From assembly GCA_964603325.1 (NCBI GenBank), contig CAZRUH010000005.1:1-32383 (forward strand): 32,383 nucleotides of DNA. Reading direction: 5' to 3'. Below the pieces are notes generated by a model. That model made no database searches and had not been told where the DNA came from. It was given only the letters and a program-made list of their open reading frames with translations. Of this stretch, positions 2,793 through 32,383 are shown in pieces. A program made the position numbers and the translations under genes. How positions within the stretch are numbered: the stretch's first letter is position 1; each line of letters begins with the position of its first letter. The DNA comes from an uncultured Bdellovibrionales bacterium. Lineage in GTDB: Bacteria > Patescibacteriota > Minisyncoccia > Moranbacterales > UBA9337.

Positions 2793-3332
2793 TTATTTCT
2801 CAGAATAAAAAGCGTTCAGTCGCTCCTCCAAATATTCTATAATTTCTTTTGTGTTTTCCTCTTTGCTTTTATTCTCAGTGTCTATTACAAGTTCCGGATT
2901 GCGAGGTTCCTCAAAAGGGTCTTGGATTCCCGTAAAATCCTTTATTTCACCTTTTCTTGCTCTAACATACATACCTTTTACATCTCTTTTTTCACATTCC
3001 GATAAAGAACATTTTACATAGACTTCCACAAAATCATTACAAAGACTACGCGTAAAATCACGCATTTTTTGATAAGGCGAAACAAATGCGGATATTACAT
3101 TAACCCCATTATCTGATAACATTTTCGCAACATAAGCTAATCGTTTAATATTTTTATTTCTATCACTCTTACTAAATCCCAAATCACTGCTAATAGTCTT
3201 ACGAACCGTATCACCATCCAGCCTCTGAATTGGTAAATTTTTATTCCTAAAATATTTTTCTATTTCCTTTGACAATGTTGTCTTACCACTACAAGGTAAT
3301 CCCGTAAACCAAATTACTATTCCTTTTTTCAT
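2793..3332 (-). CDS. cysC: Adenylyl-sulfate (APS) kinase
   Basis: WFTGLPCSGKTT P-loop, LDGD, DLGFSKSDR, RDVKGMY, FTGIQDPFEEP. ATG at 3332 preferred over TTG at 3350. Confidence 0.95.
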   Translation of the reverse strand: MKKGIVIWFTGLPCSGKTTLSKEIEKYFRNKNLPIQRLDGDTVRKTISSDLGFSKSDRNKNIKRLAYVAKMLSDNGVNVISAFVSPYQKMRDFTRSLCNDFVEVYVKCSLSECEKRDVKGMYVRARKGEIKDFTGIQDPFEEPRNPELVIDTENKSKEENTKEIIEYLEERLNAFYSEK

Positions 3333-3351
3333 ATTTATTTCTATCGCCAAA

Positions 3352-4629
3352 CTATTTAATTTGCCAATTATGCTCCAAAAAAATTATTCCGGCTCTCTCA
3401 TCTCTGGATATTATTTTTATAAATTGATCATTATCCTTGCCATTGTATTCATCAACGATATCATAAACCTTTCCATTCTTTTTTAATAAAACAACCCGAC
3501 AATAAAATGTTCCTCTGTTAAAAATGGTTTTATTAAATAGAATGGTTACGGTATTTACTCCTCTTTTCCACCTAACACCGACTTTATCCACTTTTGTATT
3601 ATTGCCACACAAAATACCTCCACTACCGCCATCAAAAATTTGGACGGCGACAACAAAATCCTCTCTCTCAACCTTATCAAGATTAATTTTTGCTTTGATT
3701 GCCAAAAAATCGCCGTATTTAATTGCTTTTATATTTTCATTGTTTTTATCTAAAACTTCAACTTTCACAATTCTGTTTTTTGTTGATTTATTTTTTTTGT
3801 TCTTCAATTTATTTTTTCTTTCCAATTCTTTCTTTTTTATCCTTTCTTGTTCTTCTATCTCTTGTCTGGCTTCTTCGCTTATATTCTTTGAAACATAAGC
3901 ATCACAAACCTTGTCAACATTATCATATTCAACAACTTTGCCATTTCTCAAAAGCATCGCTCTATCGCAATATTTTCTAATAACTCCAATATCATGCGTT
4001 ACCAAAACCACGGTTTTATTGGTATCACGATATTTTCTAAAAACATCAATACATTTTTTTTGAAAATTACTATCACCAACCGCCAAAACTTCATCCATTA
4101 AAAGTATTTCTCTGTTGGCAAAGATTGAAACACTAAAAGCCAACCTGACACTCATCCCGGAAGAATAATTTTTTAATTTCTGATCAATAAATCTTTTTAA
4201 TTCCGAAAAAGCAACTATGTCATCAAATCGCTCATCAATTTCTTTTTTGGTCAAACCCAAAACCGTTCCGTTAAGATAAATGTTATCCCGTCCGGAAAGT
4301 TCCGGATTAAAACCAATTCCCAATTCCAAAAAAGGAGACACTAATCCGTTAATTTTTATTTTTCCTTTATCAGGACGATAAATTCCCGCCAAAATTTTTA
4401 AAAGCGTTGATTTTCCACTTCCATTTCTACCGATAATTCCAAAAAATTCACCCTTTCTAATTTCAAAAGAAACTTCATTGAGAGCATTGAATTTTTCATA
4501 ATCATTATCTTTCAAAGCATTAACAAATGCTCCCCGCACACTATTTATTTTATTGTGAGGAATTTTAAAAGTTTTAAACACCTTGTCAACTTTTATGGCC
4601 ACATTGCTTATTTCGGTTTTTTTTGTCAT
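3352..4629 (-). CDS. wzt: Polysaccharide/O-antigen export ABC transporter ATP-binding subunit with C-terminal Wzt_C-like domain
   Basis: Walker A GRNGSGKST, LELGIGFNPELSGRDN, signature YSSGM, Walker B ILLMDE, H-loop VTHD, beta-rich C-terminal extension. Confidence 0.9.
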   Translation of the reverse strand: MTKKTEISNVAIKVDKVFKTFKIPHNKINSVRGAFVNALKDNDYEKFNALNEVSFEIRKGEFFGIIGRNGSGKSTLLKILAGIYRPDKGKIKINGLVSPFLELGIGFNPELSGRDNIYLNGTVLGLTKKEIDERFDDIVAFSELKRFIDQKLKNYSSGMSVRLAFSVSIFANREILLMDEVLAVGDSNFQKKCIDVFRKYRDTNKTVVLVTHDIGVIRKYCDRAMLLRNGKVVEYDNVDKVCDAYVSKNISEEARQEIEEQERIKKKELERKNKLKNKKNKSTKNRIVKVEVLDKNNENIKAIKYGDFLAIKAKINLDKVEREDFVVAVQIFDGGSGGILCGNNTKVDKVGVRWKRGVNTVTILFNKTIFNRGTFYCRVVLLKKNGKVYDIVDEYNGKDNDQFIKIISRDERAGIIFLEHNWQIK

Positions 4630-14800: not shown

Positions 14801-16069
14801 TTATTTATAATCTACTTTATTCATAGCTCTTTTTAAAATAGTCATTAAAACCTTTTCTTCGCCGGATAATTCCAAAACCAAACTTGCCAATCCTATGGGA
14901 GTAACATCCTGAGTGCTTACCAATTCACCGGTCTCATCAATAATATGCGCCGCATCTTGTGGTCGCAAAAAGATAACCTTCGGCTGATCAACAAATGACA
15001 ACCTTTCCGCCCATCCCGGAGAAAGTAAAACTTTTTTTATGCCCGGCAAGCCGGATCCTCCGCCACACATCAATATTCTTGTCGGCAAAATATCATTTTG
15101 CGAAAATTCTGACAATGCTAATTCTACTCCACTTAGCCAAATACGGCAATCTTCTTCAAACATTTTTTCTATTTTTTGCGTATCAAATTTGTTTAATTTC
15201 CCCAAAGAATAATTCAATTTTATTTGTTCCGATTTTTCCAATTCAATATTAAATTCTTGAGATAATTTTTTGGTAAAAGCTCTACCCCCCAAAGCAAACA
15301 TTTTTGTACCTTCCAATCCGCCATTTCTAACTACGGCAATATCGGTAGTTCCTCCACCAACATCAATAAACACTGCATTAAAATTTAAATCACCTTCAAA
15401 ATCAACCAATCGCGCTACCGCATAAGGCTCAGCTGCAATATTTACCAATCCAATGCCCAATTCATTAACTATTGTTTCAATTGCCCCCAGATGAATTGTT
15501 GGGGCGTAAGCATTAAAAACACTAATGGACACATTGTGACCTTGAAATCCCAAAGGATTGCTTATTCTATACCCATCAATTTTAACACTGGAAATGGCGG
15601 CATTTATCAATTTTATATCAATATTACTTTGATTTGTTTCCCATGCGATTTGTTTTTGTATCCTTTCATAAGCTTTTTGTTGAACTTTTTGAATAATATC
15701 TTTCAATTCCGACATTCCTATTTTTACATCGGAATTTACTCTTTCATAATGAACCGTGGTTGTCGTTCCCTTAACTAATTCTCCGGCAATTCCGACAATT
15801 GCATATTTTATTTTTCTAACTCCCGCCTTGTTTTTAGCAATATTTATCGCTTCTTTGGCAACCTCAATAACTCCGGAAATATCCGAAACCGCTCCACTTT
15901 GCATATTACCAAATTTTTGTCTAACTTTTCCAACACCAATCACCACACCTTTTTTATTTTCATCATCAATTTTAACAACCAAAGCTTTTACCACTTCCGT
16001 CCCAATATCTAACGCTAGGATCAACTTAGGTTTTTTTTGCCCGGAAAAAATTTTTGAAATAAAATTCAT
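14801..16069 (-). CDS. FtsA-like actin-fold ATPase (probably a paralog, since it is not beside ftsZ)
   Basis: ALDIGTE (phosphate 1), GAVSDI, AEPYA, IDVGGGTTD (phosphate 2), GGRAFT, CGGGSGLPG (adenosine motif). Confidence 0.8.
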   Translation of the reverse strand: MNFISKIFSGQKKPKLILALDIGTEVVKALVVKIDDENKKGVVIGVGKVRQKFGNMQSGAVSDISGVIEVAKEAINIAKNKAGVRKIKYAIVGIAGELVKGTTTTVHYERVNSDVKIGMSELKDIIQKVQQKAYERIQKQIAWETNQSNIDIKLINAAISSVKIDGYRISNPLGFQGHNVSISVFNAYAPTIHLGAIETIVNELGIGLVNIAAEPYAVARLVDFEGDLNFNAVFIDVGGGTTDIAVVRNGGLEGTKMFALGGRAFTKKLSQEFNIELEKSEQIKLNYSLGKLNKFDTQKIEKMFEEDCRIWLSGVELALSEFSQNDILPTRILMCGGGSGLPGIKKVLLSPGWAERLSFVDQPKVIFLRPQDAAHIIDETGELVSTQDVTPIGLASLVLELSGEEKVLMTILKRAMNKVDYK

Positions 16070-28691: not shown

Positions 28692-29599
28692 AGATTTAAA
28701 AATAAGTTTTCCAAAATTAGTTTTTTGTTTAAATTTTGAGTTGTTTTTATTTTTTGCAAAGTCTGATCAATTTTCTCTATTAGATAATAATATCTCTCCC
28801 ACTTCTTGTTATCATCATTCATTTGTCTATATGCTTGAATTCTTAAAAACCATATCCAAAACTCCAGCAAATCTGAGGTTTCTGAAAAATTTTTGGAATA
28901 TTTTTCTGCCAACTCAAACTTTTCAAAATTATTTGAAACAATAATTTTTTTTAATTCTTTAATTTCAAAATCTCTTTTTTCCGTATCGCTTTTTTTCTCT
29001 AAAATTTTTAGAATATTTTTCGGTCTTCCCATTGAATAAACTATTGCCTTATCCAATTCTTCGGATGATAAACTGTTTGCAAAAGCATATCTCATTTCCT
29101 CAAAACTTACCAAATCAAATTGTATTCTTTGACATCTGGATAAAATTGTTTTTAAGATACCCTCCTCTTCACTGGCAACTAAAATTATTATTGATGTTTC
29201 ATTAGGCTCTTCCAGTGTTTTTAATAATGTATTTTGAGAAGAAATGTTTAGTTTCTCTGCATCATCAATAATTAATACCCGGAATTTTCCCCTTGTCGGA
29301 AACAAACTCAACTTATTGCATTCTTTGCGAACATCTCCCACTCCAACCGTTGCTTTATTCTTTTCAATAATATTTTTATTAGACTCCAAATTTAAAACAC
29401 TTAAATTCAATAAGGAGTTGTTCTTGTCATTGTAGTCAATAATTTCTTCATATTCATTTATTAAAGAATTGGCAAATAATTTAGCAACAAACAACTTTCC
29501 GACCCCTTTAGGGCCTGAAAAAAAATATGTTTGCGGAATATTCTTAGAAGCTAAAATATTGTTTAATATTCTGATTTGTTTTTTATGACCGATAATCAT
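28688..29599 (-). CDS. holB: DNA polymerase III delta-prime subunit
   Basis: IIGH, FSGPKGVGK, IIDDAEKLNISSQNTLLKTLEEP, TILSRC; TGA stop overlaps the ftsQ ATG. Confidence 0.88.
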   Translation of the reverse strand: MIIGHKKQIRILNNILASKNIPQTYFFSGPKGVGKLFVAKLFANSLINEYEEIIDYNDKNNSLLNLSVLNLESNKNIIEKNKATVGVGDVRKECNKLSLFPTRGKFRVLIIDDAEKLNISSQNTLLKTLEEPNETSIIILVASEEEGILKTILSRCQRIQFDLVSFEEMRYAFANSLSSEELDKAIVYSMGRPKNILKILEKKSDTEKRDFEIKELKKIIVSNNFEKFELAEKYSKNFSETSDLLEFWIWFLRIQAYRQMNDDNKKWERYYYLIEKIDQTLQKIKTTQNLNKKLILENLFLNL

Positions 29600-30767
29600 A
29601 CAATTTGTCAATGTTTTTTTTCAGTTCTTTTTTAAATTTTTCAACACTAAATTCCTTTGCATATTCTTGGATTTTTTTCTTGTTGTATTTTTTTTCATTG
29701 TTTATAAATCTTCTAACTCCATCCGCAAGCACTTCTGTTGTTTGAGCGTCAAATAATTCTCCGGTTACCCCCCTCTTTACTATTTCTTTAGCGCCACCCC
29801 TATTAATTGCCACAACGGGAATGCCATAATTCATAGCCTCTATCATTGTCATCCCAAAATCATCTATTGTCGGAAATATGAAAGCCCTGGCATTTTCATA
29901 ATACTTCCGTAATTCATCATCATTTTTCCATCCCAGAATTTTTATATTCTTTTTGGAAATTTTTTGTAAATATTTCTTTTGCTCTCCTTCACCAATCACA
30001 ATCAACGGCAATTCTAATTTATTAAAAGCTTCTACTACAAGATTAATTTTTTTATATGCCGATAAACGAGAGACCACTAAAAAATAATTTCTATCTTTTC
30101 TCTTTTTATTTTTCTCTTGTTTATTTTTAACAGAAACTCCCGGATAAATCACATTACTTTCGCGCCTGTAATATTTTTTAATTCGTTCCTGTGTGTATCT
30201 AGAATTAGCGATCAAAACATCCGGTCGTTGTGTTGCTTGATAATCCCATAATCGTAAATAAGTTAAAAACATCCTCTTGCATAATCCAATTTTTTTATTA
30301 TTATCTTTCAAATATTTTTCATTATAATCCCACAAAAACCTTATTGGCGAATGAATATAAGAAATATGCTTTGTATTAAGTCTAGTCACAACTCCCTTAC
30401 TCCATGCTCCGGAAGAAGAAATAATTAAATCAAATTCTCTTAAATCAAACATCTCTATAGCCACCGGCATAAATGGCAACAACAACCGACGATATCTTAT
30501 TTTTAAAATCTTTGGAAATTTTTGCAGAAAAGAAGTTCTTATTATTTTGTCAGAAAACTTCCCTCGCATTTTTTCTTTGTCATAAATCAAAGTATAAATT
30601 GGTGCATCCGGAAACATTTCACATAAAGTTTCCAGAACCTTTTCCGCACCTCCACGCTGAATTAAAAAATCGTGCACAATAGCAATTCTCAGGTGTTTTA
30701 TTCGTTGAGATTGTGATGATATTAATTTATCTATTAAAACTGTTCTGTCATCTTGACTTTTTCCCAT
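29583..30767 (-). CDS. GT4-family (GT-B) glycosyltransferase
   Basis: AIVHDFLIQRGGAEKVL, HSPIRFLWD, IANS, VIYPGV, SRLSAYK, DDFGMTMIEAM. Confidence 0.92.
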   Translation of the reverse strand: MGKSQDDRTVLIDKLISSQSQRIKHLRIAIVHDFLIQRGGAEKVLETLCEMFPDAPIYTLIYDKEKMRGKFSDKIIRTSFLQKFPKILKIRYRRLLLPFMPVAIEMFDLREFDLIISSSGAWSKGVVTRLNTKHISYIHSPIRFLWDYNEKYLKDNNKKIGLCKRMFLTYLRLWDYQATQRPDVLIANSRYTQERIKKYYRRESNVIYPGVSVKNKQEKNKKRKDRNYFLVVSRLSAYKKINLVVEAFNKLELPLIVIGEGEQKKYLQKISKKNIKILGWKNDDELRKYYENARAFIFPTIDDFGMTMIEAMNYGIPVVAINRGGAKEIVKRGVTGELFDAQTTEVLADGVRRFINNEKKYNKKKIQEYAKEFSVEKFKKELKKNIDKLYDYRS

Positions 30768-30820
30768 ATTAGGATAGTTCTTTAAAAGATTTAATCAAAA
30801 AAGTGAATAATCTATAGCTT

Positions 30821-30829
30821 ATTATAGCA
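30821..30829 (-). promoter_or_regulatory. Extended -10 promoter (TGCTATAAT) for GT4-holB-ftsQ
   Basis: Exact TGnTATAAT 53 nt upstream of ATG 30767. Confidence 0.7.
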
Positions 30830-30842
30830 TTTATTCATTTTT

Positions 30843-30851
30843 TGGTATAAA
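30843..30851 (+). promoter_or_regulatory. Possible divergent extended -10 (TGGTATAAA)
   Basis: One mismatch to TGnTATAAT (at the conserved last T); back-to-back with the minus-strand promoter and upstream of the structured region. Confidence 0.3.
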
Positions 30852-30871
30852 AAATTAAAAAGTTAAAAAAG

Positions 30872-30902
30872 GAGAAAGAATGAGAAAATGAGAACTGGAG
30901 AA
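30872..30902 (+). repeat. Four GAGAA direct repeats
   Basis: GAGAA at 30872, 30882, 30890 and 30898, including a tandem AATGAGAA x2 (30879-30894). Confidence 0.6.
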
Positions 30903-31061
30903 AAACAAAAAATAAAAATTGCAATTTTTATTTTAATCGCCGTCACCATTTTTGGCAATTCGGCGATTGAATTTCTTGGCGAGGCAAGATGCCTTGCTAT
31001 CGCCAATTTTGTTGGAGAAATTCTTGCTCCGTTTTTTTTATCGGAGCATTTTTTTTGCTAA
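30888..31061 (+). CDS. Possible 57-aa hydrophobic peptide MRTGEKQKIKIAIFILIAVTIFGNSAIEFLGEARCLAIANFVGEILAPFFLSEHFFC
   Basis: Manual translation (below the track cutoff); AAGGAG at 30869-30874; basic N-terminus plus hydrophobic segment. It lies largely over strong hairpins, so it may be incidental. Confidence 0.3.
   Translation: MRTGEKQKIKIAIFILIAVTIFGNSAIEFLGEARCLAIANFVGEILAPFFLSEHFFC
31025..31056 (+). terminator. Intrinsic terminator-like hairpin
   Basis: TGCTCCG / CGGAGCA stem followed by 8 T. Confidence 0.45.
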
Positions 31062-31145
31062 TTTATTTTTTTGGGTATTATTTTATTTATATACCCAAGA
31101 AAATAATCTATCGACTGAAAAGTCGATAGGAAACAAAAGTTTCCG

Positions 31146-31178
31146 AGGGGTGTTTCACGAAGTGAAACACCCCTTTTT
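31146..31178 (+). terminator. Strong hairpin with T-tract on the plus strand; lies 25 nt past the leuS stop on the minus strand
   Basis: AGGGGTGTTTCAC-GAA-GTGAAACACCCCT 13-bp perfect stem, then TTTT. Confidence 0.55.
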
Positions 31179-31199
31179 AATATCATTTTTTTCAGAAAC

Positions 31200-32383
31200 C
31201 TATACCACAATACTTATTAACCTTCCTTTCACAAAAATCACTTTTTTAATTTCTTTGCCATCGGTATATTGCTTAATTTTTTCAGACTGCAGAGCTTTTT
31301 CCTTGGCCTTTTCTTCGGAAATATCCGCTGATACTTGCATTTTATCTCGTACTTTACCATTAATTTGAATAACCATTTCCACAGATTCATCTTGAATCAT
31401 TTTCGGATTATATTTCGGCCAGGATTGATTGAAAATGAAATCTTCTTTTTTTGTAGCTTCTTTTTCTAAAACGTCATTTTTTTGCAACTTTAAAAATTCA
31501 TTCCATAAAATTTTTAAATCTTCGCTCCGTACTTCTTTTTCAACCTCATCAAAAGTTAACCAAGTTAAATTAAATTTTTCATGTGCTTCCAATTGCTGTT
31601 TAACTTGTTTATTGTTTGCTAATTTTATAAATATGCCCTGCACCAAAGCTTTTCTGTTTACACCCCTTGGTTTAGAATAAAATTCAGTTATAAACTTATC
31701 ACCGAGTAATTTAATAGTTTTTATATTATAATAGCCAGTCTCTTCTTGTAATTCCCTTTTGGCAGCTTGCTCTAGCGTCTCTCCTTTTTTAATTCCACCA
31801 ACGACAAAAGACTTCATATTTAAATTGTCCCAATTAAGCATCAGAACTTTATCATCTTTCCAATGTTTTATAATGCAATTAACATTACTCCTTTTTATTG
31901 TTTTTTTACCACTCCTTGGGGGATTTGCATTGTCAATAAAATGAGGAGTATTATTAGACAATAAGGCAAATAACTCTTCCGCAATATGCGGAGCAAAGGG
32001 AGATAATAAAATTAAAAATCCTTTCATTGCTGACATTGGCAGTGTCTTATGTTTAGAACATTCATTTATAAATATCATCAATTTGGAAATCGCTGTATTA
32101 AATCTTAAATTTTCTATATCTTCCGTAACTCCTTTAATAGTTTTATGCCATAGAGGAGGAATAGTTTTAGCGATGTCTCCACATTCTCCTGCCCCACATT
32201 CTACTAATTCTTTTTCATTAAATATTCTCCAAACTTTTTCCAAAAACCGATAGACACCTTTTACTCCTTCTTCTTTAAACATAACATCTTCCTCTAATGG
32301 ACCAGCAAACATCATATACATTCTTGTGGCATCAGCGCCAAATTTTTCTACCATATCATTGGGATTAATAACATTTCCTTTGG
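31200..32383 (-). CDS. leuS: Leucine--tRNA ligase, C-terminal part (5' end outside the window), with inserted NUDIX domain
   Basis: Frame open to the window edge (KGNVINPNDMVEKFGADATRMYMMFAGP, the segment that follows KMSKS), FNTAISKLM, LLSPFAPHIAEEL, WP, IQINGKVR, KKVIFVKGRLISIVV C-terminus. Confidence 0.95.
   Translation of the reverse strand, partial: KGNVINPNDMVEKFGADATRMYMMFAGPLEEDVMFKEEGVKGVYRFLEKVWRIFNEKELVECGAGECGDIAKTIPPLWHKTIKGVTEDIENLRFNTAISKLMIFINECSKHKTLPMSAMKGFLILLSPFAPHIAEELFALLSNNTPHFIDNANPPRSGKKTIKRSNVNCIIKHWKDDKVLMLNWDNLNMKSFVVGGIKKGETLEQAAKRELQEETGYYNIKTIKLLGDKFITEFYSKPRGVNRKALVQGIFIKLANNKQVKQQLEAHEKFNLTWLTFDEVEKEVRSEDLKILWNEFLKLQKNDVLEKEATKKEDFIFNQSWPKYNPKMIQDESVEMVIQINGKVRDKMQVSADISEEKAKEKALQSEKIKQYTDGKEIKKVIFVKGRLISIVV

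Follow-up and report, generated by a model that had tools for sequence, protein, structure and literature searches.

Structured coding mRNAs and dual-function RNAs are already known kinds of bacterial RNA. In Escherichia coli the lpp message, a long-lived mRNA of 322 nt, encodes a lipoprotein of 78 aa and was reported around 1980 to fold into about nine hairpins. The dual-function RNAs RNAIII, SR1 and SgrS have defined single-stranded regions that pair with their targets. Type I toxins usually have fewer than 60 aa and one helix, and hok-type mRNAs are among the type I toxin messages with functional hairpins. How does a small gene compare when its whole reading frame is packed with hairpins? 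Such a gene lies in a 32,383-nt stretch of DNA (hereafter the window), which is one complete contig (CAZRUH010000005.1) of a 701,809-base, 89.9%-complete assembly with 31% G+C from an uncultured bacterium of the GTDB order Moranbacterales. A first-pass annotation, made from the letters alone, had seen eight back-to-back hairpins at 30909-31178 and proposed an undescribed non-coding RNA or a composite of palindromic mobile DNA. Our analysis points elsewhere: the region is probably an mRNA of ~320-330 nt for a small membrane protein, in which selection has shaped the coding sequence into a chain of stem-loops.

Compared with the aapA3/IsoA3 mRNA of Helicobacter pylori, as far as the accessible part of its description goes (PMC6733600), the locus has in common a small hydrophobic protein, in-frame stem-loops that appear to be selected, a putative action in cis on translation and a lineage-restricted distribution. 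There, one or two hairpins sequester the Shine-Dalgarno (SD) sequence, whereas here the hairpins stand back to back across the whole frame, the position is syntenic, the protein has 80-93 aa and two predicted helices, and no conserved antisense promoter was found. RNAIII/hld, SR1/SR1P and SgrS/SgrT are likewise hairpin-rich transcripts of a few hundred nt that hold a translated small open reading frame (ORF), but the ORF is a minor part of them and makes up three quarters of the transcript here. Like lpp, the locus would encode an envelope protein of small size on a message of ~320 nt that forms many predicted hairpins and closes with an intrinsic terminator. It is new in that the selected stems span the whole reading frame, in that the protein family is an unannotated one of ultrasmall bacteria, and in that a second, unrelated example occurs in the same genome. 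No description of the family, nor of hairpin-chain mRNAs in Parcubacteria/Patescibacteria, was found in the literature covered, subscription journals being outside that coverage.

The comparisons at the DNA level rest on four lineages: the window genome (G000), its same-genus congener (G001), another genome of the order (G002) and a metagenome locus (L016). The features of the locus are as follows.

30823-30851, plus strand: promoter-like block TATAGCATTTATTCATTTTTTGGTATAAA, near-invariant between the window and G001
30869-30874, plus strand: SD sequence AAGGAG, read from the sequence
30880-30891, plus strand: three-codon mini-ORF ATG AGA AAA TGA, 5 nt after the SD (the ideal distance); its stop overlaps the main start (ATGA)
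30888-31129, plus strand: the gene overall, SD-preceded and holding hairpins 1-6
30888-31039, plus strand: gene part 1, frame 0, MRTGEKQKIKIAIFILIAVTIFGNSAIEFLGEARCLAIANFVGEILAPFF; aligns with the N-terminal two thirds of the family
30909-30934, plus strand: hairpin 1, a perfect 26-nt palindrome with arms of 13+13 nt, 100% complementary (inverted-repeat finder); Lys/Ile codons pair with Ile/Phe/Leu codons at the start of protein helix 1
30935-30968, plus strand: hairpin 2, AATCGCCG / CGGCGATT; two pairs altered on both sides relative to G001
30969-31023, plus strand: hairpin 3, a long bulged stem centred on conserved R-C codons; three double compensatory pairs relative to G001
31025-31048, plus strand: hairpin 4, TGCTCCG / CGGAGCA, with a 10-nt loop holding the frameshift T8; stem invariant in G001
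31032-31039, plus strand: T8 run with the -1 frameshift, one base short of G001 in the pairwise DNA alignment
31040-31129, plus strand: gene part 2, frame -1, IGAFFLLIYFFGYYFIYIPKKIIYRLKSR, with stop TAG at 31127-31129
31063-31106, plus strand: hairpin 5, with 16-nt arms (31063-31078 / 31091-31106), 94% complementary; three double compensatory pairs relative to G001
31108-31129, plus strand: hairpin 6, CTATCGACT-GAAA-AGTCGATAG, spanning the last codons and the stop
31129-31144, plus strand: hairpin 7, GGAAAC-AAAA-GTTTCC, in the 3' untranslated region (UTR)
31146-31174, plus strand: hairpin 8, with 13-nt arms (31146-31158 / 31162-31174), 100% complementary, then TTTTT
31145-31179, plus strand: hairpin 8 and its T-tract as a predicted intrinsic terminator (scan: 31145-31175, 14 pairs, 7 of them G-C, loop of 3, T-rich tail)

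The eight hairpins are present where the first-pass annotation had placed them, and RNAfold redraws all of them as the minimum-free-energy (MFE) structure. The folding is strong: the plus strand of 30909-31178 folds to -110.8 kcal/mol against -54.2 +/- 4.5 for dinucleotide shuffles (z -12.58, 0 of 200 as good), and the minus strand to -103.2 kcal/mol (z -12.26, again 0 of 200). The local fold has 95 base pairs in 286 nt, with hairpin loops of 3-18 nt and stem linkers of 0-5 nt. When 5,490 plus-strand grid windows of 250 nt across the genome were scored by their residual after regression on G+C, two over this locus ranked 5th and 8th. The absence of a known RNA family was confirmed with Rfam 15, which gave 23 matches at E <=10 in 30500-31500, none near threshold; the best was snoR74, with 26.1 bits against a gathering score of 44.

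Is the region then a non-coding RNA? That part of the earlier proposal was not borne out, for the hairpins overlie a conserved ORF with a ribosome-binding site, coding-type substitutions and protein homologues. The region is the gene of a predicted two-helix membrane protein of ~80 aa, which belongs to a rare unnamed Parcubacteria family represented in six lineages, two of which (P0003 and P0004) contribute protein evidence only. Because of the ORF, the coding-type pattern and the terminator call, hairpins 1-6 are assigned to coding sequence, hairpin 7 to the 3' UTR and hairpin 8 to the terminator. G001 has an intact homologous ORF of 80 aa in the same place and orientation relative to the orthologue of the neighbouring GT4 glycosyltransferase gene. 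Differences between the window and G001 fall 31, 11 and 37 times on codon positions 1, 2 and 3, and 20 of the 56 differing codons are synonymous. An exhaustive phmmer search with the G001 protein over 1.84 billion representatives returned three relatives of 79, 85 and 93 aa (E 1.5e-18, 3.5e-10 and 6.4e-9), each a singleton cluster, and 13 residues are invariant among the four full-length proteins. Part 2 of the window gene aligns with the C-terminus of the family, including an invariant P-(R/K)-K-I, and gives a separate hidden Markov model match of its own (9.4e-7). The AlphaFold model has two long helices at low confidence (predicted local distance difference test score 62).

The family is rare. 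It is in 3 of the 319 genomes of the order (G000, G001 and G002). A class sample of 401 genomes yielded only G000 and one weak match with an internal stop (G321, 7.7e-4); another weak match, in G018, has two stops (1e-3). Three metagenome loci were found, two of them equal to the G001 record save for one nucleotide over 563 nt, while the third, L016, is new and corresponds to the 93-aa protein. None of 54 candidate stretches in viral contigs was confirmed. Pfam and NCBIfam had no match to the ORF above cut-off, the ESM Atlas gave only unnamed clusters (best 0.85, none at or above 0.9), and a word-indexed protein search returned only the query itself.

Does the protein by itself account for the folding? 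Synonymous codons were permuted 300 times per gene, with protein and codon composition held constant, and the native sequence was more stable in all four lineages.

Window coding sequence: native MFE -86.9, permuted mean -51.9, z -7.73, 0/300 as stable
G001 coding sequence: native MFE -82.4, permuted mean -60.3, z -3.82, 0/300 as stable
L016 coding sequence: native MFE -67.2, permuted mean -50.1, z -3.42, 0/300 as stable
G002 coding sequence: native MFE -100.7, permuted mean -80.7, z -4.15, 0/300 as stable

As controls, 18 other genes of the window supplied 36 in-frame segments, with a mean z of -0.34 (standard deviation 1.02, minimum -2.61). Among the SD-preceded small ORFs of the genome 4 of 36 fall below z -3, the locus included, and a small membrane gene resembling that of ATP synthase subunit c has z -0.07.

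The covariation that the first-pass annotation had suggested looking for is present. When the 95 pairs of the window are placed on the window/G001 alignment, G001 keeps 77 of them (50 with the same bases, 12 with a one-sided change and 15 with a double change), and 18 are broken. Six slid controls, in which partners were moved by 1-3 columns, have 1-4 double changes against the 15 observed, and shuffles have 8.2 +/- 2.0, with 0 of 500 reaching 15. Some compensations cross the protein level: a Glu>Lys replacement (GAG>AAA) is matched by a silent ATC>ATT, and a Trp>Gly replacement (TGG>GGG) by a silent change of Pro from CCA to CCC. Hairpin 6 has 100% pairing in G001 with three double compensatory pairs. 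Hairpin 7 has a counterpart there by eye, GAATAAC-AAG-GTTATTC; it is not drawn as a separate stem in the G001 whole-transcript fold, and 75% of its cells pair on MAFFT columns. At the codons of hairpin 4, L016 has ACTCCAA/TTGGAGT. A contig of run X3, from a ~91%-alike strain, adds a little evidence in the same direction: in hairpin 3, 30993 C>T and 31023 C>T keep their pairing solely as plus-strand G-U and 30998 T>C converts a G-U pair to G-C, and in the terminator a G inserted after 31146 is matched by 31174 T>C.

These G-U pairs bear on the strand, which the earlier reading had also taken to be the plus strand on the same grounds. In all four lineages the sense strand folds more stably than the antisense, by 7-16 kcal/mol, with 7 against 2, 12 against 3, 9 against 7 and 13 against 8 G-U pairs. 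All 12 one-sided changes between the window and G001 go through plus-strand G-U, and the A-C type, which would be a wobble on the other strand, accounts for only 5 of the 18 breaks. This bias suggests that the structure is selected on the sense RNA rather than on DNA cruciforms or an antisense RNA. The evidence for the strand is moderate, since T-rich coding strands favour G-U anyway.

The signals around the gene agree with a plus-strand message. As had been predicted, a transcript of ~320 nt convergent on leuS can be drawn, from the conserved promoter-like block to the intrinsic terminator. The -10-like motif noticed upstream is an extended one, TGGTATAAA at 30843-30851, and is conserved in G001; a simple promoter scan did not flag it because the scan requires a -35 match. 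Plus-strand promoter-like sites lie at the equivalent place in G001 (TTTACA-16-TATAGT) and G002 (TTGACT-17-TATTAT with TG), and promoter-like hits in the window scan are no commoner than in shuffles (3 found, 2.1 expected). SD-like sites precede the start codon as GAGGAA in G001, AAGGAG in L016 and AGGAGG in G002. In the window the main ATG lies 13 nt from the GGAG core, and the mini-ORF with its overlapping stop and start, which is absent from G001, makes termination-reinitiation coupling possible. Of the two T-tracts that had been proposed to follow stems 4 and 8, the one after stem 8 was flagged as a plus-strand terminator, and a stem with a T-run also ends the gene in G001, L016 and G002. 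Stem 4 and its T8 escaped the scan, whose limit on loop size lies below the 10 nt of this stem; a second T8 (31049-31056) directly after hairpin 4 makes it resemble an internal terminator. Hairpin 6 scores as terminator-like on the minus strand as well and could end leuS.

Two observations concern the ends of the transcript. In the X3 strain the 55 nt of 5' UTR at 30844-30898 are swapped for 71 other letters, and G001 has an extra hairpin inserted in its 5' UTR, so the leader is the most variable part of the transcript. Hairpin 8, whose arms resemble parS half-sites, was considered as a parS-like site, and the idea was dropped as the G001 terminator differs in sequence.

The window copy itself is broken by a frameshift in the T8 run. 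Read straight on, frame 0 stops at TAA 31059-31061 and gives 57 aa; a -1 shift or one added U restores the C-terminus of the family. Over 30813-31386 a Logan contig of run X1 matches the window exactly, T8 included; as it probably derives from the data behind the assembly, it does not count as independent support. The X3 contig crosses 30970-31104 with 12 differences and no gap, which suggests that the frameshift is probably real and older than the divergence of that strain. How then might a full-length protein be made? It would require transcriptional slippage or -1 ribosomal slippage on U UUU UUA, a slippery heptamer (X XXY YYZ) at 31034-31040 in the frame-0 context CCG UUU UUU UUA. Rescue of frameshifts in homopolymer runs by transcriptional slippage or -1 ribosomal frameshifting is described in the available part of a review (PMC5009743), and the break in the window is likewise in a U8 run; the heptamer is of the same type as the U6A shift site of HIV gag-pol, according to the portion of another paper that is accessible (PMC5737442). 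Unlike programmed -1 frameshift sites, the window site has no stimulatory structure 5-9 nt past it, the next strong stem (hairpin 5) starting 22 nt downstream, and it is not conserved in the other lineages: G001, L016 and G002 have no T-run and no shift at that place. The window copy can be read in three ways, as recoded, as encoding a truncated product of 57 aa, or as decaying.

What might a hairpin chain do for such a message? The mRNA would start from a promoter near 30823-30851 and end at the terminator at 31145-31179, and selection on the sense RNA, atop that on the protein, would have given its coding sequence a near gap-free chain of local stem-loops. The chain would act in cis. It would leave few single-stranded A/U-rich entry sites for decay by RNase Y and RNase J, in a genome of 31% G+C where such single-stranded RNA is the default, and each stem would have to be opened by the ribosome, so that elongation on a two-helix membrane protein might be slowed or metered. 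In this way the small envelope protein would be made from an mRNA that is long-lived, throttled and closed by a protective terminator. Genes for RNase Y, RNase J and RNase III are present, and no RNase E/G turned up in the 89.9%-complete assembly, so decay should be of the Bacillus type, that is, by RNase Y/J.

Several points weigh against the reading as a selected mRNA or against this role for it. The covariation rests on two sequences, with the structure taken from one of them, which favours it, and the four lineages with DNA include only one close pair. The register of the hairpins is clearly common only within the genus: bracket agreement between the window and G001 is 0.57 against 0.33 in shifted controls (z 3.0, equalled by 0 of 285 shifts), while between distant lineages it exceeds the controls only weakly (z 1.0-2.1, equalled by 3-42 of 285 shifts). 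Over long distances it would thus be the density of local pairing that is preserved, and not one architecture. Transcription, the transcript ends and the strand are predictions from sequence signals; none of the sequencing runs listed is of RNA. The frameshift in the window copy may mark it as a pseudogene; if it is one, the extra-strong structure (z -7.7) does not belong to a functioning mRNA. The stabilizing and throttling role in cis is wholly inferred, and we hold it tentatively, at slightly under an even chance. Its analogy to stable messages lacks a tested precedent, because E. coli lpp shows no significant excess in the same permutation test (z -1.09, 46 of 300 permutations as stable), against -3.4 to -7.7 for the small membrane-protein family.

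On balance we still regard a small membrane-protein mRNA with a selected hairpin chain as the probable nature of the locus. The retention of pairing density rather than architecture fits a generic role in cis on the message better than a ribozyme-like or riboswitch-like RNA. Codons that recur in hairpins can be recognized by eye: K/E against F codons at the N-terminus, I-F-G-N, R-C, A-P..G-A, W/G against P-R/K-K, and the C-terminal end. The P-R/K-K codons anchor hairpins in all four lineages, and hairpin 5 pairs the F-F-G(GGG) codons with the invariant P(CCC)-K-K codons. Apart from RNA phages and the messages of type I toxins, selected RNA structure seldom extends over an entire bacterial reading frame. 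The compensations here cross amino-acid replacements, and they occur in an uncultured lineage of minimal genomes, where each such investment should count. The locus would offer a testable case for the coupling of mRNA structure, RNase Y/J decay and the synthesis of small membrane proteins, and it adds an unannotated small-protein family.

Might the chain instead gate a toxin? In a module like those of type I, it would keep the mRNA of a harmful hydrophobic protein translation-poor, with the SD sequestered co-transcriptionally and an antisense RNA in control, made by leuS read-through or from an internal antisense promoter. The product is indeed small and hydrophobic, and its occurrence, in 3 of the order's 319 genomes, is lineage-restricted and patchy, yet with 79-93 aa and two predicted helices it is bigger than most type I toxins, and the gene is single-copy and keeps a fixed chromosomal position by a housekeeping-type GT4 gene in four lineages. 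The SD is mostly paired in all four predicted full-length transcripts (probability of being unpaired 0.11-0.37), but its partners are low-complexity U-runs, for which the prediction is unreliable. A minus-strand promoter-like site, TTGCCA-17-TAAAAT (10/12), lies inside the window gene and is not at that place in G001, L016 or G002. SD-sequestering hairpins within the ORF are documented for aapA3 of H. pylori in the accessible part of its description (PMC6733600). Taken together, we consider a toxin-like module unlikely.

A second possibility is that the mRNA doubles as a structured regulatory or scaffold RNA, the hairpins serving that second function. The structure is selected beyond coding need and on the sense strand, its ranks of 5th and 8th among 5,490 are as extreme as those of the top RNA-like loci of the genome, and the window copy keeps it despite a broken reading frame. 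Against this, inspection of the predicted folds by eye shows no motif conserved in loops or single strands, the register drifts between distant lineages as it does not in RNAs with a specific fold, and no Rfam family reaches threshold. A dual function thus seems quite improbable.

A purely non-coding structured RNA with the ORF as a by-product would suit the very strong folding, the lack of a Pfam or NCBIfam family and the interrupted ORF of the window. It would leave unexplained the intact ORFs of 79-93 aa with conserved residues in five other lineages, the SD before the start in all four DNA loci, and the second codon position as the least changed one (11 against 31 and 37) with 20 synonymous codon differences, so that we give it very little credence. 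The case is a caution for genome scans, as an extreme fold z-score and covariation alone do not amount to a non-coding RNA.

The other half of the earlier proposal, mobile palindromic DNA, is rejected because the region is single-copy and its sole extended match elsewhere is syntenic. With blastn-short in its own genome it matches itself and A/T-rich words of at most 25 nt, and a DNA search of 61 genomes (G000 and 60 relatives) found beyond it one extended match, the G001 copy (66% identity, query 9-346, E 1.5e-14); in 15 further genomes the search gave only short, A/T-rich matches. The gene is syntenic in four lineages, and the direct repeats inside the region are merely two short A/T-rich pairs of 15 nt. 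More broadly, palindromes acting at the DNA level and having no RNA function, whether mobile elements, a TIGR-type guide array or template-switch quasi-palindromes, are highly improbable: the two strands do fold almost equally (z -12.6 and -12.3), hairpins 1, 8 and 5 are perfect or nearly so, and tandem stem-loop arrays are known in parasitic bacteria from the available part of one report (PMC12045711), but the region is single-copy with no extended match in 59 of 60 other genomes, it has no direct repeats beyond those short pairs, its loops are of 3-18 nt, no Nop-domain protein was found, and the G-U pairs and one-sided changes favour a sense RNA. TIGR arrays, as far as the accessible text of that report describes them (PMC12045711), have units whose large loops hold two spacers of 8-12 nt flanked by box C/D motifs, beside a Tas gene with a Nop domain. 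They resemble the locus in their tandem variable palindromic stem-loops, their occurrence in parasitic or ultrasmall bacteria and a terminator at the end, and differ from it by its 3-18-nt loops, its conserved ORF and its neighbours GT4 and LeuS. A TIGR stem-loop array was dropped as a candidate, there being no PF01798 (Nop-domain) match in the 89.9%-complete genome and the loops being too small.

The gene occupies a 432-nt intergenic gap flanked by two minus-strand genes, the GT4 glycosyltransferase (29583-30767) and a tRNA-ligase fragment (31200-32381) that is the C-terminal part of a class I tRNA ligase, the leuS of the first-pass annotation. In the window, G001, G002 and L016, the four lineages with DNA, its divergent neighbour is the same GT4 orthologue, and in the window and L016 it converges on leuS. 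The GT4 orthologue was found in 22 of 22 family genomes, and the small gene adjoins it in 3 of the 19 loci inspected (G000, G001 and G002). Upstream of the orthologue four other family genomes have an unrelated ORF of 48-75 aa with one predicted helix, e.g. MKKNHSFLTPFGKKV..., at loci L035 (G016), L036 (G021), L050 (G019) and L041 (G012). The tRNA-ligase fragment contains a NUDIX domain (PF00293, 5.2e-13) at 31515-31817 on the minus strand, which splits the anticodon-binding domain in two; the convergent LeuS-like fragment of L016 has no NUDIX match.

Other loci of the genome are over-structured as well. The most over-structured 250-nt segment is in contig C8 at 3290-3640 (about 490-840 of L022), with a G+C of 0.58 and an MFE of -163 kcal/mol. 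It contains, at C8:3373-3573, a lipoprotein-like ORF of 66 aa with an SD (AAGGAGG), a signal peptide and a lipobox-like LQSC, packed with perfect hairpins. This coding sequence folds to -120.8 against -76.8 for permuted ones (z -6.64, 0 of 300 as stable); it has no Rfam match, occurs in 0 of 21 family genomes and finds only itself in the protein collection. One might go further and propose a class of 'armoured' mRNAs for small envelope proteins in ultrasmall Parcubacteria, with nearly every nucleotide of the reading frame in stem-loops selected on the sense RNA, of which the locus and C8:3373-3573 would be two independent examples. The RNA might have a second job or gate translation in the manner of type I toxins, and the window protein would be completed only by slippage on the U8, which is kept in a strain ~9% diverged. 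We think this has a small but real chance of being right; if so, two unrelated armoured messages would exist in one 0.7-Mb genome.

Elsewhere in the genome, contig C24 has at 919-1935 eight exact copies of the 14-nt palindrome GTTCCACGTGGAAC within 1 kb, spaced irregularly by 63-279 nt, in a region that is among the more structured windows of the genome. GTTCCACGTGGAAC was found nowhere else in the assembly, and it resembles a parS-type centromere site. At C10:2700-3800 (L031) a reverse-transcriptase-like ORF with a YMDD motif lies in a run of over-structured windows and is possibly part of a group II intron or a retron. The same contig has at 15364-15660 an ORF of 98 aa with a synonymous-permutation z of -3.75.

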